Shown: positions 8,401-38,383, counted from the stretch's first letter. The stretch: 38,942 nucleotides of DNA from Candidatus Sulfotelmatobacter sp. (GCA_035625755.1 DASPOZ010000101.1:1-38942), one strand, 5' to 3'. Made by a program: numbers and translations. Notes: a model not told the origin generated them from the sequence alone.

Positions 8401-8429
8401 AGTGTAGAGGGTTTCTCCTCGCCTGTCAA
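8401..8429 (-). promoter_or_regulatory. Sigma70-like promoter for rpsU (TTGACA-17-TACACT)
   Basis: Hexamers and the 17-nt spacer read directly from the minus strand. The -35 hexamer contains the stop codon (8426-8428) of the upstream moaD-like ORF. Confidence 0.5.
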
Positions 8430-8818
8430 TGGCCGGGCCGGAATCCGGCAGCAACCCCTCCAGCCGGCCCCCGGGCCACGGCGGGGAGCCGGCCGGCCGC
8501 GCCAGCCCCGCCAGCGCTGGCCGGGACGCCACCGCCCTTGCCTGCACCTCCCGCAATGGCGGGAACGATGCTCACCTGGTCCCCCGCCTTCAGCGGCGTC
8601 TGGGCCCCTTGCAGGAACCGGATGTCCTCCTCGTTGACGTAGATGTTGATGAAGCGGCGGAGCTGGCCATGATCGTCACAGAGACGGGCGCGCAGCCCCG
8701 TGTACTGGCCCTCCAGCGCCTCGATCAACTCCGCCACGGATGCAGCGGAGGCCTTCACCTCACCCTGCCCCCCGGTGAGGCCCCGCAGCGGCGTCGGGAT
8801 CCGCACGGTCACGCTCAT
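8426..8818 (-). CDS. MoaD/ThiS/CysO-family sulfur-carrier (Ubl) protein with a 39-aa extension after the Gly-Gly
   Basis: ATG 8818 with AGGGAGGAAAAG upstream. A 91-aa beta-grasp-like domain ends in VPAIAGG (GG codons 8551-8546). The frame continues as [39 protein letters not shown]. Confidence 0.8.
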
Positions 8819-8874
8819 CTTTTCCTCCCTAGTCCAGGGTCCCGAGTCCAAAGTCCCGAGTCGCGGGCGCGGCA

Positions 8875-10125
8875 TCAACGGGCGGCGGCCAGGACGCCGG
8901 CGGCGGCCAGCGCGCCGTCGAACGACTTGAGGGTGGGCTTGATCTGCAGGGGGGCCGGCAGCGCATCCACCACGGCCTCCTGGGTCTTCAGCCCGTGCCC
9001 CGTGATGCACACGACGAGGCTCTCGTCCCGGGGGATGCGCCCCTGCGCGATGAGGCGCATGGCCGCGGCCAGCGTCACCCCGCCGGCCGTCTCGGCGTAG
9101 ATCCCCTCGGTGGCGGCCAGCAGCTTCATGGCCTCCACGATCTCGGCGTCACTGGCGTGCTCGCCCCAGCCTCCGCTGTCCTTCACCACCTTGTAGGCGT
9201 AGTAGCCGTCGGCCGGGTTGCCGATGGCCAGCGACTTGGCGATGGTCCGGGGCCGCACGGGCCGGATGGTCTCCGAGCCTTCCTTGACCGAATTCACGAT
9301 GGGGCCGCACCCCTCCGCCTGGGCGACGTACATCCGGGTGGGCACGTCCGCGATCAGTTCCAGGGTGCGGAGCTCCTGCAGCCCCTTCCAGATCTTGGTG
9401 ATCAGCGACCCGCCGGCGGCGGGCACCACGATATGCTGCGGGGCGCGCCAGCCGAGCTGCTCGGCGATCTCGTAGCCGAAGGTCTTGGACCCCTCGGCGT
9501 AGTAGGGGCGGATGTTGATGTTCACGAAGGCCCAGCCGTACTTGTCCGCCACCTCGCTGCAGAGCCGATTCACCTCGTCGTAGTTGCCTTCCACCGCCAC
9601 CACGGAAGGGTTGTAGATGGACGTCCCCAGTACCTTGCCCTGCTCCAGGTCCGCCGGGATGAAGACGAAGCTCTTTATCCCGGCCTCGGCGGCGTGGGCC
9701 GCCACGGAGTTCGCCAGGTTGCCGGTGGAGGCGCAGGCCACCACCTGAAATCCCATCTCCAGGGCCCGGGTCACCGCCACGGCCACCACGCGGTCCTTGA
9801 AGGAGAGGGTCGGATGATTGACCGTGTCGTTCTTGAGGTAGAGTTCCCGCACGCCCAGGGCACGGGCCAGGTTTCGGGCCCGGATCAGGGGGGTGAAGCC
9901 GCATGCCCGGCCCACCGCCGCCTCGCCCTCGATGGGCAGCAGGGGGCGATAGCGCCAGATGCTGGGTGGCCCCGCCTCGACGGATCGGCGCGAGACCAGG
10001 CGCCGCAGGGCCTCGTAATCGTAGGCCACCTCCAGCGGCCCGAAGCAGAACTCGCAGACGTGGAGCGCTTTGGCCGGGTACGGCCGCCCACACTCGCGGC
10101 ACTTCAACCCCTTGATCGTTCCCAT
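8875..10125 (-). CDS. Threonine-synthase-family PLP enzyme (ThrC-like; predicted homocysteine-forming MetM-like role)
   Basis: N-terminal zinc ribbon CRECG...CEFC. PLP-lysine motif TLSFKDR. ATG 10125 (alternative ATG 10143). Lies in the SAM-riboswitch operon. Confidence 0.85.
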
Positions 10126-10187
10126 CCTGGATCCTACTCCCATCCCGCGGCCCCCGGCGAGGGGGGCCAGCGGCCTCGCCCCGGGGA

Positions 10188-10421
10188 TTATCCCCGGAGC
10201 TCCTCCACCCGGATCCCCAGCCCCGAGAGGAACGCGATGCCGCGCGCCACCTCGGCCGGATCGCCCTTGAGTTTCACCGTAACCTCGCCCGAGGCCTCGG
10301 TCACCCGGGCCTTGCGGATGTTAGGGACGATCTCGAATTCCTTGCAGAGGCGGTACAGCACCGGCTCCGTGACCAGGGAAGACGGGTAGGTCAGCTTCAC
10401 CGTGCGCGTGACTGCAGCCAT
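10188..10421 (-). CDS. NIL-domain protein (77 aa)
   Basis: ATG 10421 with GGGAGG 7 nt upstream. VKLTYPSSLVTEPVLYRLCKEFEIVPNIRKARV resembles the NIL domain of the MetN C-terminus. The tracked start at 10460 lies inside the riboswitch terminator and is rejected. Confidence 0.75.
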   Translation of the reverse strand: MAAVTRTVKLTYPSSLVTEPVLYRLCKEFEIVPNIRKARVTEASGEVTVKLKGDPAEVARGIAFLSGLGIRVEELRG

Positions 10422-10441
10422 GTGCCGCCTCCCGGGACCAT

Positions 10442-10482
10442 AAAAAAAACCCCTCCTCATCCATAGGCAATGAGAAGGGGTT
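10442..10482 (-). terminator. Riboswitch expression-platform terminator
   Basis: Minus strand reads CCCCTTCTCAT-TGCCTATGG-ATGAGGAGGGG followed by TTTTTTTT. Confidence 0.85.
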
Positions 10483-10500
10483 GCATTGACCCTTATCTTG

Positions 10501-10632
10501 CCTCATCTCTCATCCCGCCGGTACAGCACTACGAAGCGGGATGTAGGAGTTGGCACCGGACCCCCGCCATGCTGGGCGGGGCGGTTGCCGTGGCGTCGTC
10601 GGGCCAGTCCCTCAGCCACTCTGGATGAGTTT
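10501..10632 (-). promoter_or_regulatory. SAM-I (S-box) riboswitch aptamer
   Basis: Minus strand reads CTCATCCAGAGTGGCTGAGGGACTGGCCCGACGACGCCACGGCAACC...GGTGCCAACTCC...GGGATGAGAGATGAG. The P1 strands and the conserved GAGGGA / GGCCC / GCAACC / GGTGCCAA blocks are all present. Confidence 0.9.
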
Positions 10633-10638
10633 CGCGTA

Positions 10639-10667
10639 TTTATAGGTGATGCGTCCCGCCCTGTCAA
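10639..10667 (-). promoter_or_regulatory. Sigma70 promoter TTGACA-17-TATAAA driving the riboswitch operon
   Basis: Near-consensus hexamers with an exact 17-nt spacer. The predicted transcription start lies at the riboswitch P1. Confidence 0.75.
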
Positions 10668-10718
10668 CAAGAAACTTTGCGGCCTGCCTCCTCGCGCCGC
10701 CGCCGCGGGGCGGCGGGG

Positions 10719-10958
10719 CTATTCCACGATGTCCTGCTCGATGGGCGCGACCTTGATCCCCTTCTCCTCCAGCCAGCGAACGCCGCGGTCCAGGGCCTCG
10801 TCGTCGCCTTCCAGTTGGAGCATCATCCAGCCGACGCTTTCCGCCATATCCGCCTGGCGGATATTGAACACCACGTCGAAGTCCCGGCAGAGCTGCCACA
10901 TGATGGGCTCGTCCGCCAGGGTCCCGGGAAACGTCAGGTGCACGCGCCGCCTGGCCAT
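10719..10958 (-). CDS. NIL-domain protein (79 aa), paralog outside the riboswitch
   Basis: ATG 10958 (MARRRVHLTFPGTLADEPIMWQLCRDFDVVFNIRQADM...). Same fold signature as 10188-10421. Confidence 0.7.
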   Translation of the reverse strand: MARRRVHLTFPGTLADEPIMWQLCRDFDVVFNIRQADMAESVGWMMLQLEGDDEALDRGVRWLEEKGIKVAPIEQDIVE

Positions 10959-10967
10959 ATCGCCTGT

Positions 10968-10996
10968 ATTATACGGGTCATTGCCCGGTCCGTAAA
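10968..10996 (-). promoter_or_regulatory. Possible promoter TTTACG-17-TATAAT just upstream of the first NIL gene
   Basis: The -10 hexamer is perfect and the -35 is weak. The -10 ends only about 9 nt before the ATG, which implies a very short leader. Confidence 0.35.
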
Positions 10997-11269
10997 GCGC
11001 GAAGGCCGCCCGACGGCGTAACCGTGGATGGGCGGTCCGCCGCTCACCCCAGGCCGGCACGGTCCTCCTCCCTCTGGCGGACCGCAAACGCAATCCGTTC
11101 CACCTCCAAGGCCGGAGTCCAGGGGTCCTCGAGTATCTCGACCGAGACGAGGGGGTCGCGCCCCTCCCCCCTTCCCAGCACCGTCAGTTCCCGCGCGGTG
11201 TCTGCCACCAGCATCACGCCATCCTCCACTGATGACCCCGGGCGGTCACCCACCCCGATAACTTCGGGT

Positions 11270-11488
11270 CTACCCCGGGAAGAACGTGGAGCCCACCCAA
11301 ACGAGTCCCCCCAGCAGCACCAGGCCCAGAATCAGGCTCCACGCCACCAGCCGGTTCTCCACCGGCAGGAAAGGCTCGTGCGGGGCCTTCGCCAGCTCCT
11401 CGGCGACCCCCAGCGCCGTTCCCGTTCGCGATCCCCTGGGCTCCGGCCGAGCCTCAACCCCCAGCGGCGCCGCAATTTGCGTTCCCAT
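11270..11488 (-). CDS. Small single-TM protein (72 aa), unknown function
   Basis: ATG 11488 with GGAAGGGAG upstream. C-terminal hydrophobic helix LVAWSLILGLVLLGGLVWVG. Follows the transporter gene. Confidence 0.4.
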   Translation of the reverse strand: MGTQIAAPLGVEARPEPRGSRTGTALGVAEELAKAPHEPFLPVENRLVAWSLILGLVLLGGLVWVGSTFFPG

Positions 11489-11563
11489 GGCAACCTTTTC
11501 TCCCTTCCGGGCCCGCCCGCCCCCGCGGGCGGATGCCCCTGCATCCCCGGCGAAGGCCGGGCT

Positions 11564-13006
11564 TCACGCGCTAGGCGGGGCGATCCCATGGAAGAAGATC
11601 CATGAGATGACCAGCCCGATCCAGATGATGAAGCCGAAGAGGGACACAACGTAGACGAGCGCCAGCTTCCCGATGCCTTCCTCCCAGAGCTTCTTGAAGT
11701 TGGACATGAGGCCGATGGTGAAGAACGTCATGACGAAGAACAGCACGCGGAAGATGTTGCTCTCCGCCGTGGCGAGCCTGGCCGCGCCCAGCAGCCCCGG
11801 CGCCCGCAGGGCGAGGACGAGCATCGCGAGGAAGGTCAGGAAGTATCCGAGCACGAACTTGGGAAACCGCTCCCATATCTCACGGGGCGAGACCCGCTCT
11901 CCCGGCTTCTTGTCGATGGCGTACACCCAGACCAGGGCCAGCACGAAAGCCCAGATGCCGATGAAGATGTCGATGAACACCTTCACCGTGGTCGCCGTCA
12001 TCAGGACCCAGCCCTCCTTGTACGTCACGCCGGCCGTGGCCAGGACCTTGGCGCGGATGAGGGCATCCGTGATGGCCCCGCTGGCTACCGCCGCGCCGTC
12101 CGTCTTGACGGCCAGGCCCATCCATGCCCCGGCCACCAGGGGCTCGTGGGCGAGGAAGGCCTGCGCCACGAAAGGCAGGAACAGCAATTCGACCACCGCA
12201 AAGATCACCACCAGCGAAGAGACCATCACGGGGACCACCGGCCGGGCCCTGATGGCTGCGCCGGTCGCGATGGCCGCCGAGACGCCGCAGATGGAGATCC
12301 CGGACGCCAGGGGGGCGGCCCATTCCCGACTGAACTTGAAGCCCCTCCGGGCGACGAGGTACACCAGGGCCCAGTAGATCAGGTAGGCCTCTAGGATGGC
12401 GGCAAACCCGCGGAACATGACCGCCTTGGCCAGGCCCGTGGCGCCGGCCGCCTGCATCCCGAGGGACGCCCCCAAGATCACGATGGCGGCCTTGATGTAC
12501 CACTCCGGCCGGGTCGCCTCCTTGAGGAAGGCCGCCAACCTGGGCCAGAAATTACCGATGATCAATCCGGCCAGGAGGGCCACGATGAACCCGGCCTCCC
12601 CCGTCAGCCCCAGGGACCAGGGGATCCTGAGCGCCTTCAACTTGTCAGGGGTCGCCGCGATGTACGCGTAGTTGCCGATGAGCCAGCAGGCGTAGCTCAC
12701 CCAGAAGATCACGGTGAAGCCGGCGGCGAACGCCTTGGCATCGAACTTCAGCGCCTTGGCCCCCAGCCCCAGGATGACCAGCATGAACAAGTAGGTGAGC
12801 ACCAGGGCCCCGACCCCAGGGAGGCCCACATAGGCCTTCGAGACCGGGGCCAGGGCCTTGCCGATGTCTAGCCACACACTCGTGGCCACACCCCAGCCGA
12901 GGAGGTCCCTTCCCCCGAGGGGGGCGAGGGAAAGCAGGAAGACGGCGAGCCCGATCCAGAGGGCCCACCAGTCTTCCGTGTTCTGAATCCATCGTTTCCT
13001 CTCCAT
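11564..13006 (-). CDS. Multi-pass membrane transporter, YeiH/UPF0324 (putative sulfate-exporter) family-like
   Basis: ATG 13006 with GGGAGGGCAGG upstream. More than 10 TM segments. The family call rests on recalled resemblance only. Confidence 0.65.
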   Translation of the reverse strand: MERKRWIQNTEDWWALWIGLAVFLLSLAPLGGRDLLGWGVATSVWLDIGKALAPVSKAYVGLPGVGALVLTYLFMLVILGLGAKALKFDAKAFAAGFTVIFWVSYACWLIGNYAYIAATPDKLKALRIPWSLGLTGEAGFIVALLAGLIIGNFWPRLAAFLKEATRPEWYIKAAIVILGASLGMQAAGATGLAKAVMFRGFAAILEAYLIYWALVYLVARRGFKFSREWAAPLASGISICGVSAAIATGAAIRARPVVPVMVSSLVVIFAVVELLFLPFVAQAFLAHEPLVAGAWMGLAVKTDGAAVASGAITDALIRAKVLATAGVTYKEGWVLMTATTVKVFIDIFIGIWAFVLALVWVYAIDKKPGERVSPREIWERFPKFVLGYFLTFLAMLVLALRAPGLLGAARLATAESNIFRVLFFVMTFFTIGLMSNFKKLWEEGIGKLALVYVVSLFGFIIWIGLVISWIFFHGIAPPSA

Positions 13007-13054
13007 CCTGCCCTCCCGTTCCCTGTCCCTGGGTCCGATCCGTCGAGCACCTCA

Positions 13055-13183
13055 CAGGGCATTGAAGAACTCTCGCATACCCGGGCTGCTCAAAAAGGTG
13101 CAGATGCAAGGCGCCGCGCGGATTCCGCAATCCGCATTCCGCATTCCGCAATGGAGAGGTGGGCCCTTTCCAGCAGCCTGCTA
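13055..13183 (+). repeat. Palindromic repeat, copy 2 (variant core)
   Basis: The arms are conserved (CCCGGGCTGCTCAAAAAGGTGCAGATGCAAGG ... GGGCCCTTTCCAGCAGCCTG-CTA). The GC-palindromic core is replaced by ATTCCGC-type short tandem repeats at 13121-13150. Confidence 0.8.
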
Positions 13184-14995
13184 CGACGCGCATTCCCCGG
13201 GGCCGGTGTGCACGCCGAAGGCCTCGGTGCCGCCCCAGTCGAGGTAGGCATCCGGCGCCTGGGCGTGCGCCGGGAGCTCGGTCAGATCCCTGACCGCCTC
13301 CCGGATCCTGGCCAATCCGAGGCGATCCACGAACGCCTCGAACGTTTCCCCGCCCCGCCGCTCCGCCCGGTAGAGGTCCAGCAGGCGGCCCACTAGGGCC
13401 GGGGCGTTCTTCGCCGGTACCTTCAGCGCGGGGCGCGCGTACCGCGTCCCCTCCAGACTGAGGGATGCGCCCAGGAAGACCTGGTAGGTCGGCACCTGCT
13501 TCCCGTCGAACACCTTCGACCCGCCGGAGAAGCCGATGCCGGCGATGTGATGGTGGCCGCAGGAGTTCGGGCAGCCCGAGATCTTGATCCGGATCCCCGC
13601 CTCGTCGGCCACATAGGCGTGGCCGTTCCGGCAAATGTCGCCGATGGCCGCCGCCAGGCCGCGCGACGAGGTGATCCCGAGCTGGCAGGTATCGGCGCCG
13701 GGGCAGGCGGTGACGTCCGCCAGGCGGTCGGCCGAGGGCGCGGCCAGGCCCGCCCCCTTGAGCAGGCGATACACCGGCGGCAGCTTGGCGCCGGGGATCC
13801 AGCGCAGGAGGATGTTCTGCTGGTTCGTCGTCCGGAGCCACCCGTCACCGAACTGGCGGGCGAGGAAGGCAAGGACCCGGAGTTGCGGGCCCGTCACGTC
13901 GCCCAGAACCAGGCGCGCGTTGACCATGAAATAGCCCCGCTGCTTCTGCGGCCGCACGTTCGTGGCCCACCATCGACCGGATTCGGGGTCGCCGTTCGGC
14001 ACGGCGGCCAGGTCCGCCGGCGACGGAGCGCGCCGCGACGCCTCCGGCGGGACATCGATGGACGGGATCCTCCCGGCCAGCACCCCGCGCAGGCCTTCGC
14101 GCTCCCCCAGGACGAGGGCGCGGAACGCCTCCATCCCGAGCTTCCGGACGACGAACTTCAGGCGGGCCAGATTGCGGTTGTCCCGATTGCCGAGCCGATC
14201 GAACACGCGCACGATGGCCGCGATGGTGACCAGCAAGTCCTCGGCCGGCGTGAAGTCCTCCAGGGGCTGCGCCACCTGGGGCGATGGGCCGAGACCGCCG
14301 CCGACATAGAGGCGGAACCCCCGCAGCCCTTCCGCGCCTTGGTGGCGCAGCGCCGCCACCGCGCCGATATCCTGGATGGGCGCGAGCCCGCAGAGGTCCC
14401 GGCACCCCGAGAAGCTGATCTTGAATTTCCGGGGCAGGTTCTGGTTCATCGGATTGCGCAGGAGGAAGCGGGCCGTGGCCTCCGCGTAGGGCGTAACGTC
14501 GAAGGGCTCGTCGGGCGCCACGCCGGCGTGGGGGCAGGCCACCACGTTGCGGACGGTGTTCCCGCAGGCCTCGCGCGTGGTGAGGCCCACCTCGGCCAGG
14601 CGCGTGAGCGTCGGCGTCAGTTCCTCCGGCTTCACGAAGTGGAACTGGATGTTCTGGCGCGTCGTGACGTGGCCCACCCCCCGCGGCGCCGCCTCGGCCA
14701 GCTCGGCCAGGCGCTCGACCTGCTTCGCCGTGAGGCCGCCCCAGGGGATCTTCACCCGCACCATGTGCACCCCCTCCTGCCGCTGGCCATAGACGCCATG
14801 CTGCAGGCGGAAGCGCTTGAACTCGTCCGGCGTGATCTCGCCGCGCCAGAAGCGATGAACGAACCGGTCGAAGGTATCGATCTCGCCGGCGTCCGCCCAG
14901 GATTCCGGCTCGTGCACGGCCTGCCCGGGGAGTTCCTCGGCGTCCGGGATGTGAAGGTGGGGTCGCCTCGTCTCGGTCGTCACCTCGTCGTTCAT
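13181..14995 (-). CDS. sir: Ferredoxin-dependent sulfite reductase (siroheme/[4Fe-4S] hemoprotein)
   Basis: ATG 14995 with GGAGGG upstream. Duplicated nitrite/sulfite-reductase half-domains. Cys cluster TACPGADTC ... SGCPNSCGHH. Confidence 0.9.
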   Translation of the reverse strand: MNDEVTTETRRPHLHIPDAEELPGQAVHEPESWADAGEIDTFDRFVHRFWRGEITPDEFKRFRLQHGVYGQRQEGVHMVRVKIPWGGLTAKQVERLAELAEAAPRGVGHVTTRQNIQFHFVKPEELTPTLTRLAEVGLTTREACGNTVRNVVACPHAGVAPDEPFDVTPYAEATARFLLRNPMNQNLPRKFKISFSGCRDLCGLAPIQDIGAVAALRHQGAEGLRGFRLYVGGGLGPSPQVAQPLEDFTPAEDLLVTIAAIVRVFDRLGNRDNRNLARLKFVVRKLGMEAFRALVLGEREGLRGVLAGRIPSIDVPPEASRRAPSPADLAAVPNGDPESGRWWATNVRPQKQRGYFMVNARLVLGDVTGPQLRVLAFLARQFGDGWLRTTNQQNILLRWIPGAKLPPVYRLLKGAGLAAPSADRLADVTACPGADTCQLGITSSRGLAAAIGDICRNGHAYVADEAGIRIKISGCPNSCGHHHIAGIGFSGGSKVFDGKQVPTYQVFLGASLSLEGTRYARPALKVPAKNAPALVGRLLDLYRAERRGGETFEAFVDRLGLARIREAVRDLTELPAHAQAPDAYLDWGGTEAFGVHTGPGECAS

Positions 14996-15007
14996 GGTCC
15001 CTCCAAG

Positions 15008-15040
15008 AAAAAAGGCCAACCCGCTCTCTGCGGATTGGCC
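15008..15040 (-). promoter_or_regulatory. Terminator-like hairpin immediately upstream of the sir RBS (possible attenuator)
   Basis: Minus strand reads GGCCAATCCGC-AGAGA-GCGGGTTGGCC followed by TTTTTT, then CTTGGAGGGACCATG. Confidence 0.55.
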
Positions 15041-15303
15041 TCCAGTTGACTGGTCAGCCTGTTATCGGCGGCGGGGGCTACACGGGCCCGACCACCGCGC
15101 AGCACATGGCGGCATCCATGTGCCCCGCACGATTGCTCCGAATCTCCCTCGGGTTACCGGACATTTGGCGCCAAAAAAAACCTTTCCAGCCTGAGCGACA
15201 CCACATGCCCATCGTGCGACATCCCCCTCTCATCAAGGCAACGGCACCCTTTTCCAAGTGTTGCGCGCCATCCGCTTCGCGACCCGCCCGGCGTCTCCAC
15301 ACC

Positions 15304-15582
15304 TCAGGCCTTGGGCAGGAACAGCTCGTAGAACCGCCTGGGGCGGATGGCCTCAAGGCAGTTCGCCACAGCCTCCTCCACCGTATCGCCAGTCTTGCTG
15401 AACTCCGGCCTCGTCACCAGCTCCGCATGCTCGGGCCGCGCCGTGCAGCGCGGGGTCTCGGGTGGCACCGGGCCCAGGGCCTCTTCCACCAGCAGTTCGA
15501 TGCTGCTCTGGCCGCATCCCATCGCCTTCCAGAAGCGAAACCGGTGAACGCGCAGCAGCCGTTCACCCTGGCGCAGCTCCAT
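15304..15582 (-). CDS. Hypothetical protein with weak HicB/UPF0150-like C-terminal half
   Basis: ATG 15582. ...RPEFSKTGDTVEEAVANCLEAI resembles the PGC..G.T.EEA..N..EAI signature only loosely. Confidence 0.3.
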   Translation of the reverse strand: MELRQGERLLRVHRFRFWKAMGCGQSSIELLVEEALGPVPPETPRCTARPEHAELVTRPEFSKTGDTVEEAVANCLEAIRPRRFYELFLPKA

Positions 15583-15596
15583 GACACCTCGCTCAA

Positions 15597-15751
15597 CAGG
15601 CTGCTGAAAAACCTTCTCTTGCCCAGGCTGCTCAAAAAGGTCCAGATGCAAGGCGGCGCGCGATGCGCCGAGTGAGGCGTACTTCTGGTACGCCGCAGCG
15701 AATGCGCGAGCGCGCCAACGCCGCAGATGGGCCTTTTTCAGCAGCCTGCTA
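15597..15751 (+). repeat. Palindromic repeat, copy 3 (short form)
   Basis: CAGGCTGCTGAAAAACC-TTCTCTTGCC-CAGGCTGCTCAAAAAGGTCCAGATGCAAGGCGGCGCGCGATGCG...GCGCGAGCGCGCCAACGCCGCAGATGGGCCTTTTTCAGCAGCCTG-CTA. Confidence 0.9.
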
Positions 15752-16597
15752 CGGCTTTTCCACGGGCACGCCCACCAGGCTCCCGTACTCGGTCCAGGAT
15801 CCGTCGTAGTTGCGGACCCTGGGATAGCCCAGGAGCTCCTTCAGGGCGAACCATGTGAGCGAGGAGCGCTCACCGATCCGGCAGTAGGCCACCACCTCCT
15901 TGTCGGGCGTGACCCCCTTGCCCGCGTAGAGGCTCTTGAGCTCGTCCGCCGACTTGAAGGTGCCGTCGGGGCGGCAGTTCTCGCCCCAGGGGATGTTCGC
16001 CGCGCCGGGCACGTGGCCGCCCCGCTGCGCCCCCTCCTGGGGCAGGTTCTCGGGGGCCAGCAATTCGCCGCTGAACTCGCGGGGCGAGCGCACATCCACC
16101 AAGGCGCGGTTCCGCCTGAAGGCCGTCTCCACCACCAGGTCCCGGGCGGCGCGGACGGAAGGATCGGGGTCCTTGGCGCTGTAGCGCACGGGGGCGATCT
16201 TGGTGGCCTCCTTGGTCAGCGCGCGGCCCTCGTCGATCCATTTCTTCCGGCCGCCGTTCATGATCTGCGCGTCGGAGTGGCCGTAATGCTTCAGCAGCCA
16301 GTAGGCGTACGTGGCGAACCAGTTATTGTTATCCCCGTAGAGGATGACCTTGGTATTGGTGCCCACCCCCGCCTGGCCCAGGAGCTGCTCGATCTTGGCC
16401 TTGCTGGCGATATCGCGCACGGGGTGCTCCTCCAGGTCCCGGAACCAGTTCAAGGCTACCGCCCCGGGGATGTGGCCCTGCTCGAAGGCGGCGGTATCCA
16501 CGGAGACCTCGATGACGCGAAGGTTCGGGTCCTTCAGATGGTCCGCCACCCATGCCGTCTCCACGAGCACCTGAGGGTTCGCGTACGCCGTCGCCAT
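15749..16597 (-). CDS. Thiosulfate/3-mercaptopyruvate sulfurtransferase (tandem rhodanese)
   Basis: ATG 16597 with AAGGGAGGGGG upstream. Two rhodanese domains. Active-site loop CRIGERSS. Confidence 0.9.
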   Translation of the reverse strand: MATAYANPQVLVETAWVADHLKDPNLRVIEVSVDTAAFEQGHIPGAVALNWFRDLEEHPVRDIASKAKIEQLLGQAGVGTNTKVILYGDNNNWFATYAYWLLKHYGHSDAQIMNGGRKKWIDEGRALTKEATKIAPVRYSAKDPDPSVRAARDLVVETAFRRNRALVDVRSPREFSGELLAPENLPQEGAQRGGHVPGAANIPWGENCRPDGTFKSADELKSLYAGKGVTPDKEVVAYCRIGERSSLTWFALKELLGYPRVRNYDGSWTEYGSLVGVPVEKP

Positions 16598-16641
16598 GGC
16601 CCCCTCCCTTCGTCCGGTCGGCTCGGACCGGACCACCGAAT

Positions 16642-16830
16642 CTACGCCAGTCGCACCTTCTCCGTGGTGTCGATCTGCACCACCCGCGAGTCCTGGATGA
16701 TGATCTGCACTTGCCCGTGACGGACGGACCGGATGGCCTCCACGATGCGCCGCAGCACCTCGCGGTCCTCGGCCCCCTCGCCGGGCGCCGGGCCCGGGGC
16801 ACCGAGATTCGCGGGCCTCTGGAGTTTCAT
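16642..16830 (-). CDS. YezD/DUF2292-family small protein
   Basis: ATG 16830 with GGGGGAG upstream. HGQVQIIIQDSRVVQIDTTEKVRL matches the family signature as recalled. Confidence 0.7.
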   Translation of the reverse strand: MKLQRPANLGAPGPAPGEGAEDREVLRRIVEAIRSVRHGQVQIIIQDSRVVQIDTTEKVRLA

Positions 16831-16855
16831 GGGCTCCCCCCCGGCCCCCGCGGGC

Positions 16856-17344
16856 TCAGGATCCGTCCGCCCCCGCGATGGGGGCCTCCAGGAATTCCCC
16901 GGCCGCCTCATCCCAGCGGAACGCCCTCACCTCGCGGACCGCCGCCGCGTCCAGGGCCACGATCAGGTAGGCCGTGTCGGGGTAGACCGGCTCGCCGTCG
17001 AACAGGGCGCGGTCCCTGTCCTCCTGGGAGAAGTAGGCTGCGTGGTCCGGGTGCGAGTGGTAGAACGCGGCCACGGCCCACCCGTCCCGGTCCACCTCGT
17101 TGAGCACGTCCAGCAGCTCCTTGCCGTCCATGTAGTAGGCGATGCGGGCGACCCGGGGATACCGCTCCGGGTCCCGCGCGTGCAGCTGGTCCTGGATGTT
17201 GCGCACGCGGCGCACCGCCTCGGCGCCGTCCCGCCGCAGGATCAGGCCGCAGCACTCGTCCGGATAGGTCTCGCGGGCGTGCGCCGCCACGGCCTCCAGC
17301 GTGGAGGTCCGGAATCGCACCGCCGTCTGCGCGCCTGTGGTCAT
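16856..17344 (-). CDS. JAMM/MPN+ metallopeptidase (Mec+/CysO-hydrolase-like)
   Basis: Catalytic Glu in PDECCG. JAMM motif HSHPDHAAYFSQED (H-x-H-x7-S-x2-D). An alternative GTG start at 17362 overlaps the cysM stop. Confidence 0.85.
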   Translation of the reverse strand: MTTGAQTAVRFRTSTLEAVAAHARETYPDECCGLILRRDGAEAVRRVRNIQDQLHARDPERYPRVARIAYYMDGKELLDVLNEVDRDGWAVAAFYHSHPDHAAYFSQEDRDRALFDGEPVYPDTAYLIVALDAAAVREVRAFRWDEAAGEFLEAPIAGADGS

Positions 17345-17355
17345 GTCCCGTCCCG

Positions 17356-18288
17356 CTACCACCAGATGTGACTGGCCACGTCCTCCGGGATGTCCGCGGT
17401 GTCCTTCTGCCAGACGCCGAGGCTCACGTACTTCCAGCCGCCGTCCGCCAGCAGGACCACGATGTTGCCCCGATCCATGCGGCGGGCCACCCGCAGGGCG
17501 CAGTGCAAGGCCGCGCCGGACGAGACGCCGGCGAAGATCCCCTCCCGGCGCATCAGATCCTTGGTGGCGGCGAACGCGCAGCGTGAGTCCACGAGGATCT
17601 TGCCGTCCAGGAGGCCCAGGTCCAGGATGGGCGGAATGAACCCCTCCTCCAGGCTCCGAAGCCCCTGCACCGCGTCCCCCGGGTGCGGCTCCGCGGCGAT
17701 GACCTTCACCCGCGGGTTATGCTCCTTGAGCCGACGGCCCACGCCCATGAGCGTGCCGCCGGTCCCCAGCCCTGCGATGAAGGCGTCTACCTCCGGCATA
17801 TCCCGCACGATCTCGGCCCCGGTGGTCTCGTAGTGGGCCCGGGGGTTGGCCGGGTTGCCATACTGGTACAGCAGGCAGAAGCGGGGGTCCTCCGCCATCT
17901 TCTGGGCCAGCTCGATGGAGCCGTTGGTCCCCCGGGCCGGGTCCGAGAAAACGATCTCGGCCCCATAGAGGTCCAAGAGCTGCCGCCGTTCCACCGTGAC
18001 GTTCTCGGGCACCACCACCGTGATCCGGTAGCCTCTCCGCCGGGCGATCATGGCCAGGGCGATCCCCGTGTTGCCGCTGGTGGGCTCCAGGATGGTCTTC
18101 TCCCGCGTGAGCTCGCCCGACCGCTCGGCGGCCTCGATCATGGACCTGGCGATGCGGTCCTTGAGGCTGCCCGTGGGGTTGTTCCCCTCGAGCTTGGCGA
18201 AGAGACGCACCCCGGGCTTGGGGCTGAACCGCGGCAGCTCCACCAGCGGGGTGTTCCCGACGGCCTCCAGGATGTCCCGAGCGATCAT
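17356..18288 (-). CDS. cysM: Cysteine synthase B-type PLP enzyme (CysM-like)
   Basis: NPTGSLKDR PLP-lysine motif and TSGNTG. GAGGGAACGGC precedes ATG 18288. Confidence 0.9.
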   Translation of the reverse strand: MIARDILEAVGNTPLVELPRFSPKPGVRLFAKLEGNNPTGSLKDRIARSMIEAAERSGELTREKTILEPTSGNTGIALAMIARRRGYRITVVVPENVTVERRQLLDLYGAEIVFSDPARGTNGSIELAQKMAEDPRFCLLYQYGNPANPRAHYETTGAEIVRDMPEVDAFIAGLGTGGTLMGVGRRLKEHNPRVKVIAAEPHPGDAVQGLRSLEEGFIPPILDLGLLDGKILVDSRCAFAATKDLMRREGIFAGVSSGAALHCALRVARRMDRGNIVVLLADGGWKYVSLGVWQKDTADIPEDVASHIWW

Positions 18289-18396
18289 GCCGTTCCCTCG
18301 CGCGGTCCGGCCGCCGCCACCGCGGCGGCGGATCCGGTGCAGTCCATATGCTCCCGCCCGCCCCCCGCCCGTTCTCGTCCCCGCAGGGTCTCGGTC

Positions 18397-19494
18397 CTAC
18401 CCCTCCGGGACCCCGGCCGCCGCCGGGATGCCACAGAACTGGTTGTAGTCGATCAGGTCCGTGATGGTGGGCCGGTCGCCGCAGACCGGACAGTTCGGAT
18501 CTCGGCGGAGCTTTACCTGGCGGAACTCCATCCCCAGGGCATCGAAGAACAGCAGCCGGCCGGCCAGGGATTCCCCTAGGCCCAGGAGGAGTTTGATGGT
18601 CTCGATCCCCTGGATGGAGGCGATGATGCCGCACAGCACGCCCAGCACGCCGGCCTCCGCGCAGCTGGGTACCAGGCCGGCCGGCGGCGGCGCCGGGTAG
18701 AGGCACCGATAGCAGCCCAGCCCCGGCTTGAACACGGTGACCTGTCCCTCGAACTTGAAGATGCTGCCGTCCACCAGGGGCTTCTGCAGGAACACCGCGG
18801 CATCGTTTGCCAGGTAGCGGGTGGGGAAGTTGTCCGATCCGTTCACGATCACGTCGTACTCGGCGAAGATCTGCTTCGCGTTCGCCGAGGACAGCTGCGT
18901 GGCGTAGGGCACCACCTTCACGTCCGGGTTCATGTCCGCAATGGTGTCGATGGCCGAATCCACCTTGGGGCGCCCCACGTCGTGGGTGTGGTGGAGGATC
19001 TGGCGCTGGAGGTTGCTGAGGTCCACCTTGTCGAAGTCCACGATGCCCAGGGTGCCCACGCCGGCCGCCGCCAGGTAGAGGGCCGCCGGAGACCCCAGGC
19101 CCCCCGCGCCGATGATCAGCACCCGGCTGCCCAGCAGCCTCTTCTGGCCGCGCCCGCCCACCTCCGGCAGGATGATGTGGCGGCTATAGCGCCGGATCTG
19201 CTCCTCGGTCATGGCGCCCGCGCCGCCGGCCAGGGCGGGGATCAGGGCCACCTCGTCGCCGTCCCGCACGGTGGCCTCGAGGCCGCCCAACTCCTCCACG
19301 GCCAGGTTGTTCACGTAGACGTTCACGTGGTGCAGGATCTCGCCGCGTCCGTCCAGCACGCGGCCGCGCAGGCCGGGGTAGCGCCCCTCCAGTTCGCGCA
19401 GGACGCCGGCCACCGTGGCCTGCCCCGCCTCCACCCGGGCCTGATTGTCCGTGAATTGGCGGTAGGGCGTCGGAATGTACACCGTGATACTCAT
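18397..19494 (-). CDS. Translational fusion of a MoaD/CysO-like Ubl domain (aa 1-91, ...ALAGG) with a MoeB/ThiF-type E1 adenylyltransferase (aa 95-365)
   Basis: The reading frame across the junction is GCC GGC GGC GCG GGC GCC ATG ACC, with no stop. E1 part: MTEEQIRRYSRHIIL, GAGGLGSP Rossmann motif, CYRC and CPVC zinc pairs. No C-terminal rhodanese domain. Confidence 0.85.
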   Translation of the reverse strand: MSITVYIPTPYRQFTDNQARVEAGQATVAGVLRELEGRYPGLRGRVLDGRGEILHHVNVYVNNLAVEELGGLEATVRDGDEVALIPALAGGAGAMTEEQIRRYSRHIILPEVGGRGQKRLLGSRVLIIGAGGLGSPAALYLAAAGVGTLGIVDFDKVDLSNLQRQILHHTHDVGRPKVDSAIDTIADMNPDVKVVPYATQLSSANAKQIFAEYDVIVNGSDNFPTRYLANDAAVFLQKPLVDGSIFKFEGQVTVFKPGLGCYRCLYPAPPPAGLVPSCAEAGVLGVLCGIIASIQGIETIKLLLGLGESLAGRLLFFDALGMEFRQVKLRRDPNCPVCGDRPTITDLIDYNQFCGIPAAAGVPEG

Positions 19495-19521
19495 CGCTGG
19501 GGTTCCTCCCCCGCCCCCGCT

Positions 19522-19549
19522 CCCCCGCCCGGCGCGCGCCGGGCGGGGG
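19522..19549. repeat. Perfect 28-bp GC palindrome between cysK and the Ubl-E1 gene
   Basis: CCCCCGCCCGGCGC|GCGCCGGGCGGGGG read directly from the sequence. No U-tract on the minus strand. Confidence 0.9.
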
Positions 19550-19567
19550 AACCATCGGGGCGGGCCG

Positions 19568-20482
19568 TCAGATGGTCTCGCGCAGGTAGCGTTCGCCGGT
19601 GTCCGGCAGCATGGTGACCACGGTGCGGCCGGGGCCGAGGCGCGCCCCCACCTGCAGGGCGGCCACCACGTTGGCCCCGGCGGAGACGCCCACCAGGAGG
19701 CCCTCCTCCCGTGCCAGCCGGCCGGCCATGGCCCTGGCGTCCGCGTCGTGGACGCCGATGATCTCGTCCAGCAGGGACCGATCCAGCACGCCGGGGACGA
19801 AGCTGGCCCCGATCCCCTGGATCCCGTGGGGCCGGAAGCGCCCGCCCTGGAGCACTGGCGACGCGGCCGGCTCCACGGCCACGATCCGCACCCCGCGGAC
19901 CTCGCGGCGGAGCACCTCCGCCACCCCGGTGATGGTCCCCCCGGTGCCCACGCCGGCCACGAAGGCGTCCACCTCGCCGCCGGTGGCCTTCAGGATCTCC
20001 TGGGCCGTGGTGCGCCGGTGCGCGTCCGGGTTGGCCGGGTTCTCGAACTGCTGCGGCATGAAGTAGGCCGGGTTCTTTCGCACCAGCTCCTGGGCCGCGA
20101 AGACGGCCCCGGTCATCCCTTCGATGGCCGGGGTGAGGACCACCTCGGCCCCGTACCGCTTGAGGAGGGCGCACCGTTCCGGGCTCATGTCCTCGGGCAT
20201 GGTGAGGATCAGACGGTAGCCCTTCACGGCGGCCACCATGGCCAGCCCCACGCCCGTATTGCCGGAGGTGGGCTCCACGATGGTGGCGCCGGGCTGGAGC
20301 CGCCCCGCCCGTTCCGCCTCCTCCACCATGGCCAGGGCGATCCGGTCCTTCACGCTGCCGGCTGGGTTCAGGGACTCGAGCTTCGCCAGGACGCGCGCGC
20401 CCCCCGGCGGGACCGCGCGGCGCAGGCGCACCAGGGGCGTGTCCCCGATGAGGTCGAGCACCGAATCCGTGATGCCACGCAT
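19568..20482 (-). CDS. cysK: Cysteine synthase A (O-acetylserine sulfhydrylase)
   Basis: ATG 20482 ([20 protein letters not shown]). NPAGSVKDR and TSGNTG. The tracked N-terminal 32 aa derive from repeat copy 4 and are rejected. Confidence 0.9.
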
Positions 20483-20508
20483 GCTGCGCCCCGCCCCGCC
20501 CGGCAGCT

Positions 20509-20661
20509 TAGCAGGCTGCTGAAAAAGGCCCATCTGCGGCGTTGGCGCGCTCGCGCGGCGCTGCGACGTACGGACCAAGTACGCCTCGCGCCTCGCCGCG
20601 CGCGCCGCCTTGCATCTGGACCTTTTTAAGCAGCCTGCGCAAAATGTTCGGCATCCTGTTA
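20509..20661 (-). repeat. Palindromic repeat, copy 4 (short form, reverse orientation)
   Basis: TAGCAGGCTGCTGAAAAAGGCCCATCTGCGGCGTTGGCGCGCTCGCGC...GCCTTGCATCTGGACCTTTTTAAGCAGCCTG...CATCCTG-TTA. Sits between the Rrf2 stop and the cysK start. Confidence 0.9.
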
Positions 20662-21108
20662 GATCTGGTAGGTCACCCGCCCCGCCCCCTGCTTCGCGCG
20701 AAGGCGCTGGCTGATGTCTTCCAGCGTGGTGGTGTCCACCACCTTGCCCACGGCGTCCCGCACTTCGGCCCAGAGGTCCTGCAGGGCGCAGAAGCCCTCC
20801 TTGGGGCAGAGCTCCCGCTGGCCATCCGTCACACAGAAGATGGGCGCGACGGGACCGTCCACCGCGCGGAGCACCTCCCCAATGGTGATCTCGTGGGGCG
20901 GCTTCGCCAGGTAGTAGCCGCCGTTGACGCCGCGCCTGCTTCGCAGGAAGCCGGCTCGTTTGAGCATGAGGAGGACCTGCTCGAGGTAACGCACCGGGAG
21001 CCCCTGGCGCCGGGCGATCCCCTCGATCTGGACGGGGCCCTGGTCATAATGCATCGCCAGGTCCTGAAGGGCTCGGGTTGCGTAATCAGCCTTTGTTGAC
21101 ACAAGCAT
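20659..21108 (-). CDS. Rrf2-family transcriptional regulator (IscR/CymR-like, three-Cys cluster site)
   Basis: [14 protein letters not shown] wHTH N-terminus. C-x7-C-x5-C in [17 protein letters not shown]. The SD sequence is weak. Confidence 0.85.
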
Positions 21109-21149
21109 ATAATACTCGTTAAAGTCGATAAGGTTAGTCGACAATTGGT

Positions 21150-21178
21150 ATTCTACATCTCCGCCATCGGCCTGTCAA
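21150..21178 (-). promoter_or_regulatory. Sigma70 promoter TTGACA-17-TAGAAT for the Rrf2-cysK... operon
   Basis: Hexamers and spacer read directly from an unusually AT-rich intergenic region. Confidence 0.65.
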
Positions 21179-27253: not shown

Positions 27254-27441
27254 CAGGTTGGTCGAAAACACGCTCTTGCCCAGGCTGCTCAAAACGGCCC
27301 AGGTGCAGGGCGGCGCGCGATGCGCCGACTGAGGCGTACGTCGGTTACGTCCCGGGGAGTGCGCGAGCGCGCCAACGCCGCACCCGCTGCCGCCCTGACG
27401 GCAGAGGGAAGAGATGCCGGGGCATTTTCAGCAGCCTGCTA
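27251..27441 (+). repeat. Palindromic repeat, copy 5 (long form)
   Basis: TAG-CAGGTTGGTCGAAAACAC-GCTCTTGCC-CAGGCTGCTCAAAACGGCCCAGGTGCAGGGCGGCGCGCGATGCG...GCGCGAGCGCGCCAACGCC...CTGCCGCCCTGACGGCAG...GGGGCATTTTCAGCAGCCTG-CTA. Confidence 0.9.
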
Positions 27442-31258: not shown

Positions 31259-31416
31259 TAACAGGCCGCTGAGAAGGCCCATCTGCGGCGTTGGCGCGCT
31301 CGCGCGACGCTGCGACGTACGACCCCAGTACGCCTCGCGCCTCGCATCGCGCGCCGCCTTGCATTTGGACCTTTTTGAGCAGCCTGGGCCGAAACCAGTT
31401 TTTCAGTATCCTGCTA
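31259..31416 (-). repeat. Palindromic repeat, copy 6 (short form, reverse orientation)
   Basis: TAA-CAGGCCGCTGAGAAGGCCCATCTGCGGCGTTGGCGCGCTCGCGC...GCCTTGCATTTGGACCTTTTTGAGCAGCCTGGGCC..TTTTTCAGTATCCTG-CTA. Confidence 0.9.
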
Positions 31417-32433: not shown

Positions 32434-32615
32434 TGAGAGCCTGTGAAAAGATCCTTCAGGCTGCTGAAAAAGGCCCAGGTGCAAGGCGGCGCGCGATGCG
32501 AGGTGCGAGGCGTACTCGGTCCGTACGTCGCAGCGCCGCGCGAGCGCGCCAACGCCCCACCCGCTACCGCCGAGGCAGCGGGGAGGAACGGTGGGCCTTT
32601 TTCAGCAGCCTGTTA
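32434..32615 (+). repeat. Palindromic repeat, copy 7 (long form)
   Basis: TGA-GAGCCTGTGAAAAGATCC-TTCAGGCTGCTGAAAAAGGCCCAGGTGCAAGGCGGCGCGCGATGCGAGGTGCGAGGCGTAC..GTACGTCGCAGCGCCGCGCGAGCGCGCCAACGCC...GGGCCTTTTTCAGCAGCCTG-TTA. Confidence 0.9.
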
Positions 32616-37585: not shown

Positions 37586-37657
37586 GCGGATCTCCTCCTC
37601 GTGATGTGCGGGGTCGGGCCTTCAACCTGACGTGGGTCGAAGCAAGCCTCCGCGCGT

Positions 37658-37861: not shown

Positions 37862-37874
37862 GGCGCGGCTCCGG

Positions 37875-38354: not shown

Positions 38355-38383
38355 GGGTCCGGTTCCTTATGCCGCGCGGCCGC

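Follow-up and report, generated by a model that had tools for sequence, protein, structure and literature searches.

A modular sulfur-assimilation locus of NC10 (Methylomirabilota) type with predicted CysO/CysM/Mec-type and MetM/MetO routes

Organization of the locus

The present study deals with a cluster of sulfur-assimilation genes in a 38,942-nt (~39 kb) stretch of DNA filed under Candidatus Sulfotelmatobacter sp. (GCA_035625755.1, DASPOZ010000101.1:1-38942), hereafter the window, in which genes for two routes of thiocarboxylate-dependent sulfur transfer, one to cysteine and one to homocysteine, appear to stand together. Since the G+C content of the window is about 70%, coding frames were picked by the G+C content of the third codon position (GC3), and the predicted products were scanned with Pfam and NCBIfam profiles. 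The minus strand holds all 15 genes together with an S-adenosylmethionine (SAM)-I riboswitch, from the promoter of an Rrf2-family regulator (21178) down to the stop codon of a gene for a ubiquitin-like (Ubl) protein (8426), and all coordinates within the cluster refer to this strand. In the direction of transcription the genes encode the Rrf2 regulator, CysK, a Ubl-E1 fusion, CysM, a JAMM peptidase, a DUF2292 protein, a tandem rhodanese and a 92-aa protein (orf92), then a sulfite reductase, a YeiH-like membrane protein and a 72-aa protein, then a first NIL protein (NIL1), and finally, behind the riboswitch, a second NIL protein (NIL2), a ThrC-like enzyme of the MetM type and a carrier of the MetO type. 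Genes for sulfate activation (sat, cysH) were not found in the window by the Pfam and NCBIfam scan.

An earlier, sequence-only reading had described a co-directional minus-strand cluster at 8426-21178, and the gene calls by GC3 and by the profiles bear this out. Its boundaries are right as well, for a promoter lies at 21178-21150 and the genes on either side are unrelated, with AMMECR1 and purM/N/H/D upstream on the plus strand and rpsU and a gene for an RRM protein downstream. The domain calls of that reading were all confirmed by the profile scans, with the exception of a "HicB-like" gene, for which neither a Pfam nor a fold match exists.

For comparison, 80 loci were fetched, which we label L001, L002 and so forth. 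In a scan with one genome per GTDB species, the closest matches of the Ubl-E1 protein were to metagenome-assembled genomes (MAGs) of the Methylomirabilota (NC10), at 72-83% identity. L085, a metagenome contig from ENA, is colinear with window positions 17099-7718 at 94% identity, with equal gene lengths throughout; as it is independent of the window, the architecture is not an assembly artefact.

The cysteine branch

The cysteine branch centers on a fusion protein of 365 aa (18397-19494; ThiS 52 bits, ThiF 278 bits), in which a CysO-like beta-grasp domain with the C-terminus ALAGG (residues 1-91, 19222-19494) passes, through the junction GG/AGAMTEEQ, into an adenylyltransferase of the MoeZ/MoeB type (18397-19221). 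The best structure matches of the fused Ubl are CysO chains (4N6E_B and 3DWG_C, 60 and 57 bits), and the E1 part retains the GAGGLGS nucleotide loop, two CxxC pairs (CYRC and CPVC) and the cysteine of SCAEAG. Among the NCBIfam models, MoeB (PRK08762, 409 bits) and MoeZ (390 bits, cutoff 647) both stay below their cutoffs, and no rhodanese domain occurs in the 365 residues; the match to the MoeZ model spans positions 5-277 only. The two-domain layout of MoeZ, adenylation plus rhodanese, is therefore missing from this E1, and a separate tandem rhodanese of the thiosulfate sulfurtransferase type (15749-16597) is encoded instead, downstream within the same cluster; it carries the active-site loop CRIGERS (residues 239-245) and matches the structures of Thermus thermophilus 1UAR (348 bits) and of the Mycobacterium tuberculosis CysA2 type, 3AAX (310 bits).

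The next gene encodes CysM (17356-18288, SLKDR motif), a predicted O-phosphoserine sulfhydrylase of the M. tuberculosis type, whose best PDB matches are M. tuberculosis CysM itself (3DKI/3DWG, 312 bits over residues 5-309, the C-terminal tail being aligned; the runner-up reaches 250 bits). The residues GLRS (209-212) align to the M. tuberculosis ALRN that contains Arg220, so that an equivalent of Arg220 is retained; the mycobacterial enzyme is an O-phosphoserine sulfhydrylase that uses CysO-thiocarboxylate (PMC11361707). It is followed by a JAMM/MPN+ metallopeptidase resembling Mec and HcyD (16856-17344; Prok-JAB 70 bits; structure matches 2KKS and 2KCQ), in which the zinc motif ExnHxHx7Sx2D is intact, as seen in ECCG and HSHPDHAAYFSQED (HxHx7Sx2D), and then by a small DUF2292 protein similar to YezD and OscA (16642-16830; PF10055 54 bits, OscA 34 bits against a cutoff of 85), a gene that occurs in some sister contigs and is missing in L081. 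With M. tuberculosis CysM as the best relative of CysM, CysO chains as the best matches of the Ubl and an intact JAMM motif, the proposal of a CysO/CysM/Mec-type cysteine branch stands.

Upstream of the fusion lies a conventional O-acetylserine sulfhydrylase A, CysK (19568-20482; TIGR01139, 422.6 bits against a cutoff of 350.95), with its pyridoxal-phosphate (PLP) lysine in the motif SVKDR. The coexistence of such an enzyme with thiocarboxylate genes, noticed from the sequence alone, is thus real, and CysK and CysM occur together normally in M. tuberculosis (PMC11361707). The likeness to the mycobacterial CysO/CysM/Mec system accordingly extends to an O-phosphoserine sulfhydrylase-type CysM, a CysO-like carrier ending in Gly-Gly, an intact JAMM peptidase and a coexisting CysK. 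The two systems differ in that the carrier is here fused to the N-terminus of the E1 and a free cysO is missing, the E1 lacks a rhodanese domain and has a separate tandem rhodanese nearby, the E1 gene is clustered here and unlinked in M. tuberculosis, and the regulator here is an Rrf2 protein.

The last gene of this part, orf92 (15304-15582; GC3 0.85), encodes a conserved 92-aa protein in which Cys23, Cys46 (motif PRCTARPDH) and His52 are invariant and the C-terminal motif RPRRFYELF is conserved. Its family comprises 35 clusters with 54-97% identity, all of the NC10 type, and the gene always adjoins a rhodanese gene, as do the homologues at L081:6337-6633 and L090:10001-10288; orf92 is a candidate sulfur-relay or redox partner. 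The "HicB-like" label finds no backing, neither in Pfam, where nothing matched at E<=10, nor in a Foldseek search against the PDB, where nothing fell below E=1.9; the fold used was of marginal reliability, as only one of five AlphaFold2 models built on a 25-sequence alignment exceeded a predicted local distance difference test (pLDDT) score of 60. The open reading frame at 15078-15356 has a GC3 of 0.68 and was rejected as non-coding, the real gene being that at 15304-15582.

The homocysteine branch

The far end of the cluster is occupied by a ThrC-like PLP enzyme of the MetM type (8875-10125; PALP 242 bits, PRK08197 295.5 bits against a cutoff of 303) with an N-terminal four-cysteine zinc ribbon, and by a sulfur-carrier Ubl of the MetO type (8426-8818; ThiS 64.5 bits), the mature part of which (8546-8818) ends in AIAGG. 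A PLP enzyme of the ThrC fold hence adjoins a carrier gene of the ThiS family. Against CysO structures the carrier reaches 84 and 83 bits; no MoaD or SAMP protein exceeds 41 bits. For both Ubls of the locus the best match is CysO, and not MoaD or ThiS.

According to the summary of Hasebe et al. 2024 given in the GapMind 2026 preprint, MetM is a threonine-synthase homologue that converts O-phosphohomoserine into homocysteine, whereas its carrier MetO is matured by Mec, loaded by MoeZ and gives its sulfur to MetM. In S. albulus, as described in PMC12172450, metO is adjacent to metM and a SAM riboswitch lies upstream, and the window holds this whole triad of SAM riboswitch, MetM and MetO. As actinomycete comparator we used the chromosome of Nonomuraea gerenzanensis, taken from a plasmid collection, in which a SAM-I riboswitch (69 bits) is followed by a ThrC-like protein and then by a Ubl ending in GG. 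The MetM-type protein of the window is 51% identical over 402 aa to that ThrC-like protein, with the zinc ribbon kept, and the MetO-type protein is 50.5% identical to the Nonomuraea Ubl. Every named protein among the best 120 database relatives of MetM is labelled "threonine synthase".

From these features we infer that the ThrC-like enzyme is a homocysteine synthase dependent on O-phosphohomoserine. We read the branch as the MetM/MetO route, judging from gene content, because a ThrC-like protein is its terminal enzyme, with a Ubl next to it and a SAM riboswitch in front. The likeness to the S. albulus system includes the ThrC-like enzyme beside a carrier of the ThiS family, the riboswitch upstream, and a Mec-type peptidase and MoeZ-type E1 in common with the cysteine route. 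The locus departs from the S. albulus unit in having a NIL gene between riboswitch and metM and a second NIL gene just upstream, and in its physical linkage with the E1/JAMM/CysM module and a sulfite-reductase cassette. It also differs from the Nonomuraea unit, where MetO stops at GG, in the tail of about 40 aa that follows the Gly-Gly of MetO here.

The branch had originally been attributed to the HcyS/HcyD/HcyF/Sir route of Wolinella succinogenes, in which sulfide made by Sir loads HcyS and MetY makes HcyS-homocysteine. There is much in the locus to invite that attribution: the E1 is rhodanese-less, a JAMM peptidase and Sir are both present, and the carrier has residues past Gly-Gly that need trimming, as HcyS-Ala does. 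The class 4e operons of Iyer et al. 2006 likewise join ThiS/JAB/E1 genes with Sir (PMC1779556), and the Wolinella route (Krishnamoorthy & Begley 2011, cited in PMC5764234) shares the rhodanese-less E1, JAMM trimming past Gly-Gly (here a predicted cleavage) and a linked Sir as presumed sulfide source. Its terminal enzyme is nevertheless missing, since no O-acetylhomoserine sulfhydrylase (Cys_Met_Meta_PP family) was found by the Pfam and NCBIfam scans in the locus or elsewhere in the window, and the partner of the second Ubl is instead a ThrC-like enzyme behind a SAM riboswitch, as in MetM/MetO, with O-phosphohomoserine as the expected acceptor. Moreover, Sir is here a variable insert, missing from several sister clusters that retain MetM and MetO, and not a fixed member of the cluster. 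The Wolinella route is for these reasons improbable, and the attribution is given up in favor of MetM/MetO.

Another alternative would take the Ubl, E1 and JAMM proteins away from sulfur amino acids altogether and assign them to molybdopterin, thiamin, tRNA thiolation or SAMP-like conjugation, the ThrC-like protein being an ordinary threonine synthase. The profile names alone would point that way, with MoeB, MoeZ and UbaA as the top NCBIfam names for the E1, both Ubls near the cutoff for SAMP1 and MoaD_arch, a match of the JAMM protein to a "desampylase" model and ThrC models scoring up to 295 bits. But the equivalog cutoffs for MoeB, MoeZ, ThiF, SAMP1 and desampylase are all unreached, genes for MoaE, ThiG, TtuA or NcsA are absent from the window, and the Ubls score 57-84 bits against CysO structures as opposed to 41 bits or less against MoaD or SAMP. 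The linkage with CysM/CysK is, besides, conserved across phyla, and a threonine synthase behind a SAM riboswitch and paired with a Ubl would be left unexplained, a pairing that MetM explains. We consider this alternative very improbable. A phylogeny against MoaD and MoeB would be a poorly posed test of branch identity, because MoeZ-type E1s serve both molybdenum cofactor synthesis and CysO.

The carriers and their processing

No free carrier gene ending in Gly-Gly adjoins cysM, the E1-fused Ubl being the sole one nearby; the window has at 18289-18396 a clean gap (indel) of 108 nt where the corresponding stretch of L081 (2984-3765) has a free CysO-like Ubl gene. Such a gene, between E1 and cysM, is present in the closest relatives by MetM (90-92% identity), JGI 3300043331, L001 and L008, and is missing also in L002 and L003, so its presence varies among NC10 genomes; in the sisters, the encoded Ubl has a tail of ~30-55 aa after GG that runs over the start of cysM. 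This extra gene weakens the earlier proposal that the E1-fused Ubl is the partner of CysM. Three classes of Ubl can thus be told apart, namely fused, free CysO-like and MetO, with 42%, 54% and 53% identity to M. tuberculosis CysO, respectively. Without a free cysO at this place, the carriers left to CysM in this genome are the fused Ubl once it is released, MetO, or one that is encoded outside the locus.

Compact clusters of the order cysK-MetM-Ubl-E1-cysM were observed in Nitrospinota (L044:7825-12125 of Nitrospinaceae, and L010), where a single Ubl, ending in GGAHR or GGR, lies between MetM and E1; NIL genes and a SAM riboswitch were not found in these two clusters. The single Ubl of L044, between MetM and E1-CysM, makes one carrier for both enzymes at least plausible, and suggests that in Nitrospinota one carrier may serve both. 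As to the sharing of one E1 and one JAMM among several carriers, which the sequence-only reading had put forward for this locus, there is precedent, both in MoeZR, an E1 for several carriers (PMC3227635), and in the system of Hasebe 2024 as summarised in the GapMind preprint.

The arrangement of Ubl and E1 genes bears on how the carriers are made. True in-frame Ubl-E1 fusions occur in 20 of the 80 fetched loci, and in many others the Ubl gene stops 1-10 codons past GG, directly before the E1 gene. When the count was confined to those loci flanked by 4 kb or more at both ends (24 in number), a JAMM gene was nearby in 23 and a CysM/K gene likewise in 23. The NC10 MetO orthologues, in turn, all have 1-38 residues beyond GG. 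From the alternation of split and fused forms with a constant JAMM gene, we argue that the peptidase exposes the Gly-Gly ends, and that both Ubls of the window would need JAMM processing, the cleavage itself being a prediction. Comparable cuts are known, since M. tuberculosis MoaX must be cut after GG (PMC4326299) and the Deinococcus peptidase DRJAMM cuts MoaD-MoaE (PMC8832034).

The tail of MetO itself (8429-8545; GG/AGKGGG...) is G/A-rich and has a second AGGAG inside. Its GC at the three codon positions (0.90/0.83/0.71, as against 0.70/0.46/0.88 in the core) is not coding-like, and it departs from the L081 sequence after ~13 residues; a conserved domain in the tail was accordingly rejected. 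The MetO stop codon falls within the -35 hexamer (TTGACA, 8429-8424) of a promoter-like site for rpsU.

Transcription units and their control

A single transcription unit for the whole cluster does not agree with the conserved dedicated promoters found before NIL1 and before the riboswitch. The region contains six promoter-like sites, where shuffled sequence would give 0.7. The Rrf2-led unit starts from a sigma-70-like promoter, TTGACA-17-TAGAAT (21150-21178), with 11/12 consensus matches. Before NIL1 stands TTTACG-17-TATAAT (10968-10996), the -10 element of which lies 9 nt before the ATG, and this site is kept in L085, L083 and L081 regardless of what lies upstream. The third, TTGACA-17-TATAAA (10639-10667), is directly upstream of the riboswitch aptamer and keeps its position in six loci (L001, L002, L003, L008, L083 and L085). 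On promoter positions, we would divide the locus into at least four transcription units, i.e., Rrf2 to orf92; sir, transporter and small protein; NIL1; and riboswitch-NIL2-metM-metO, which are probably transcribed independently; independent transcription is one half of what the sequence-only reading had named as speaking against it.

The SAM-I (S-box) riboswitch (RF00162, 10500-10631) scores 79.2 bits against a gathering score of 44.4 and covers model positions 1-108; riboswitches at the equivalent position were found in L001, L002, L003 and L008. It is followed by an intrinsic terminator of 14 bp and U8 (10448-10482), which forms the expression platform, and then by the ribosome-binding site and ATG of NIL2. 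Neither the 311-nt gap upstream of NIL1 nor the leader of sir yielded a second riboswitch or another known RNA, all Rfam matches there at E<=1 being snoRNA and miRNA entries at chance level. A search for 12-mers with at most one mismatch across the intergenic regions gave only G+C-rich low-complexity matches and no common operator motif.

NIL2 (10188-10421; 77 aa, PF09383 53 bits) is the first gene of the SAM-controlled unit, and NIL1 (10719-10958; 79 aa, PF09383 69 bits) precedes the riboswitch with its own, constitutive-looking promoter. Both are stand-alone NIL proteins and form distinct conserved orthologue groups which, among the loci examined, occur only in NC10; searches with phmmer and a custom HMM (hidden Markov model) found no NIL gene in any fetched locus outside NC10, the Nitrospinota MetM loci included. 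A large-database search with NIL2 yielded 21 close relatives only, its reach being limited by the word index. Known occurrences of the NIL domain outside this setting are MetN, the ATPase of methionine transporters, and MA1822, a homocysteine factor of methanogens (PMC5764234); the paper library that was searched gave nothing that links NIL domains, riboswitches and methionine. A role as persulfide carrier was considered and dropped, as the single Cys is not conserved, and our best guess is a small-ligand regulatory role.

At the other end, the regulator (20659-21108; Pfam Rrf2 140 bits) passes the Rrf2 superfamily model (129 bits against 73) and is nearest to CymR and IscR, under the cutoffs of both (CymR 105.7 bits against 195). 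Its C-x8-C-x5-C motif consists of Cys92, Cys101 and Cys107, which are possible Fe-S ligands. The regulator is always paired with cysK in the NC10 loci and also in Chloroflexi loci (L026, L031), a pairing that recalls the CymR-CysK regulatory complex of Bacillus subtilis. Control by sulfur status through the Rrf2 regulator and SAM is likely.

The sulfite-reductase cassette and its plasticity

Between orf92 and NIL1 lies a cassette that opens with a 308-nt leader (14996-15303), which diverges from L085 in its upstream part and hardly at all in its last ~110 nt. A hairpin of 14 bp with a U-run (15043-15011) closes the leader 16 nt before the ATG of sir. The leader matches no Rfam family at E<=1 and may be an attenuator or an unrecognised cis-regulatory element. 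The gene that follows (13181-14995) encodes a siroheme/[4Fe-4S] reductase of the NirA/SirA type with two copies each of NIR_SIR and NIR_SIR_ferr, the motif CPGADTC...CPNSC, and structure matches to plant NiR and M. tuberculosis NirA/SirA (1ZJ8). We call it a sulfite reductase mainly because relatives place PAPS (phosphoadenosine phosphosulfate) reductase, ATP sulfurylase and HEM4 beside sir. Downstream are a membrane protein of 480 aa (11564-13006) of the Cons_hypoth698/YeiH-like type (PSE family; PF03601, 72.5 bits against 24.5), which reaches only 30 bits with TIGR00698 (cutoff 233), and a 72-aa protein (11270-11488) with one C-terminal hydrophobic, transmembrane-type helix, which has no family match and is encoded in L085 by the same gene of 72 aa.

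Comparison of the loci shows that many MAGs of NC10 and metagenome contigs in public databases keep the joined cysteine and methionine cluster, and that the cassette varies. The order Rrf2-cysK-UblE1-(cysO)-cysM-JAMM-...-NIL-riboswitch-NIL-MetM-MetO recurs in L001, L002, L003, L008, L081, L082 and an ENA contig. In L001, L002, L003 and L008 the core cluster stands without sir, with NIL directly after JAMM, and L081 and L082 add a rhodanese and an orf92 homologue to this core. Relative to L081, the window has an insertion of 4.35 kb (15308-10959), made up of the sir leader, sir, the transporter and the 72-aa gene. Versions complete with sir occur in L085 (94% identity), JGI contig 3300043331 and L083; the JGI contig, otherwise as the window from purH to the RRM gene, has sir-41aa-Cons_hypoth698-HEM4 in the slot, and L083 has sir-Cons_hypoth698-HEM4-sir2-TauE-PAPS reductase-ATP sulfurylase. 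The slot between orf92 and the NIL1 promoter may thus be empty or hold sir-transporter, as in the window and three sister assemblies, sir-transporter-HEM4 or a full sat/cysH/sir set. A more distant NC10 MAG, L090, has the order Rrf2-cysK-UblE1-YeeE-like transporter-rhodanese-TusA-rhodanese-orf95-cysM-JAMM-sir-HEM4-PAPS reductase-TauE, with YeeE-like and TusA genes of thiosulfate uptake near the rhodanese. Since slot content differs among assemblies, the cluster can be described as a sulfur island of some plasticity, whose core is fixed and whose cassette for sulfate, sulfite or thiosulfate varies.

A model for the locus

Taken together, the evidence leads us to view the locus as a modular NC10 (Methylomirabilota) sulfur-assimilation locus of at least four co-directional units that would combine a CysO/CysM/Mec-type with a MetM/MetO route, a reading to which we assign a probability of about 0.7. 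Unit A, from the Rrf2 promoter to orf92, would provide the Rrf2 regulator, CysK, the thiocarboxylate route to cysteine (Ubl-E1 pro-protein, CysM and Mec-type JAMM), DUF2292, rhodanese and orf92; unit B, the lineage-variable cassette, here with Sir, the YeiH-like protein and the small transmembrane protein, would supply sulfide; unit C would be NIL1 alone; and unit D, with its own promoter and a terminator-type SAM-I riboswitch, would express NIL2, MetM and MetO to make homocysteine from O-phosphohomoserine and MetO-thiocarboxylate. The JAMM peptidase would first free the Gly-Gly ends by cutting Ubl-GG/AGAM...E1 and MetO-GG/AGKG...tail, after which the carriers would be adenylated by the single rhodanese-less E1 and would receive sulfur either from sulfide made by Sir or from the persulfide of the rhodanese. 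CysM and MetM would then move this sulfur to their phospho-esters, and JAMM would finally release cysteine or homocysteine from the carrier. The cysteine genes would in this scheme answer to the Rrf2 regulator, and the homocysteine genes to SAM.

Several points weigh against the model. The E1 lacks the rhodanese domain of MoeZ, and the Ubl of CysM is ambiguous, as the dedicated free CysO-like gene of the sisters is missing here and the fused Ubl is the most divergent class (42% identity, against 53% for MetO). The assignment of MetM leans on a Nonomuraea protein and not on S. albulus MetM itself, and the sequence alone cannot separate a sulfite from a nitrite reductase here. No promoter was found for sir, and the view covers 39 kb of genome, so that further E1, JAMM, CysO, MetY or ThrC genes may be encoded elsewhere.

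Another possibility is that the modules are neighbours and yet functionally independent, the fused Ubl being regulatory or structural, with carriers, a rhodanese-bearing MoeZ-type E1 or a peptidase encoded elsewhere, or with CysM working on free sulfide. The sister genomes keep the fused Ubl although they also encode a free CysO-like one, which speaks against simple redundancy of the two, and Iyer et al. 2006 argued likewise for Ubl-ThiF fusions beside free ThiS (PMC1779556); the promoters, too, are separate, the regulators differ (Rrf2 as opposed to SAM), and a single window of the genome is in view. Yet no Ubl other than the fused or immediately adjacent one accompanies CysM-JAMM-E1 in Acidobacteriota and Verrucomicrobiota, fused and split forms alternate at one position, and the fused Ubl retains its C-terminal Gly-Gly and CysO-like sequence, while the cysteine and methionine modules remain linked across NC10 genera and in Nitrospinaceae L044. 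We therefore hold independence to be rather unlikely, though less so than the other two alternatives, and keep to the combined CysO/CysM/Mec-type and MetM/MetO model.

An extension of the model can be offered more tentatively. The NIL pair might be dedicated components of MetM/MetO, either as regulators that bind methionine, homocysteine or SAM or as adaptors of MetM, MetO and E1, and orf92 might add a sulfur-relay step, so that one carrier-making E1/JAMM core would feed two branches under split control at the protein and RNA levels; this we regard as a speculative possibility, with the odds against it.

Iyer, Burroughs & Aravind 2006 (PMC1779556) already described Ubl domains fused to ThiF-type E1s and co-occurring with free Ubl genes, as well as operons that combine Ubl, E1, JAB and cysteine synthase (class 4c) or Ubl, JAB and rhodanese-less E1 with sulfite reductase, PAPS reductase, ATP sulfurylase and O-acetylhomoserine sulfhydrylase (class 4e). 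The present locus resembles these classes in its Ubl/E1/JAB set with cysteine synthase and sulfite reductase and in its N-terminal Ubl fusion. In class 4e, however, the homocysteine enzyme is O-acetylhomoserine sulfhydrylase and SirA/TusA always occurs, where MetM and a tandem rhodanese are found here, and the classes of Iyer et al. contain neither the NIL pair nor the SAM riboswitch nor orf92. The statement that the combined architecture had gone undescribed is accordingly weakened by that catalogue and by the conservation across NC10. In a modest sense, then, what belongs to the locus is the physical union of CysM and MetM branches with a shared E1/JAMM, the NIL pair split by a promoter-bearing riboswitch, orf92, the variable cassette, the lack of a free cysO and the predicted need of both Ubls for JAMM processing. 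Neither the chemistry nor the general type of operon is new, a specialist would not be surprised, and current understanding is not overturned.

What the locus does offer is a compact test bed, in which two thiocarboxylate routes, from O-phosphoserine to cysteine and from O-phosphohomoserine to homocysteine, lie beside one E1, one JAMM, one rhodanese and one sulfide source. It suits reconstitution, where one could ask how one E1 and one peptidase serve several carriers, whether loading proceeds from sulfide or rhodanese persulfide, and whether Ubl-E1 is a true pro-protein. The MetM/MetO route would also extend to an uncultivated phylum through an enzyme uniformly annotated "threonine synthase", which matters for metabolic reconstructions and auxotrophy predictions, and accessory functions may be sought in the conserved NIL pair and in orf92.

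Repeats and neighbouring genes

Farther along the window, on the minus strand at 36959-38857, a run of redox and Fe-S genes encodes a superoxide dismutase of the Fe/Mn type, an Fe-S assembly protein resembling IscX, a 2x[4Fe-4S] ferredoxin and a peroxiredoxin of the AhpC/TSA family; this ferredoxin may donate electrons to the sulfite reductase, which is of the ferredoxin type.

A palindromic repeat of ~130-150 nt, similar to REP (repetitive extragenic palindromic) and MITE (miniature inverted-repeat transposable element) sequences and with arms CAGGCTGCTSAAAAAGG...CCTTTTTCAGCAGCCTG, occurs in seven copies in the 39 kb, all of them intergenic (360-754, 13063-13183, 15597-15751, 20505-20650, 27254-27441, 31259-31413 and 32457-32615). 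Three copies lie inside the sulfur cluster, in the gaps between Rrf2 and cysK (20505), rhodanese and orf92 (15597), and sir and transporter (13063); the last (13063-13183) is partial, and L085 has a full copy at that place. The repeats fold as long hairpins (-84 to -91 kcal/mol), could act as terminators, mRNA stabilisers or recombination sites, and are common to other NC10 loci at 77-91% identity (L001:11201-11353, L001:14143-14295, L008:1498-1650, L083:2690-2855 and L085:3872-4031).

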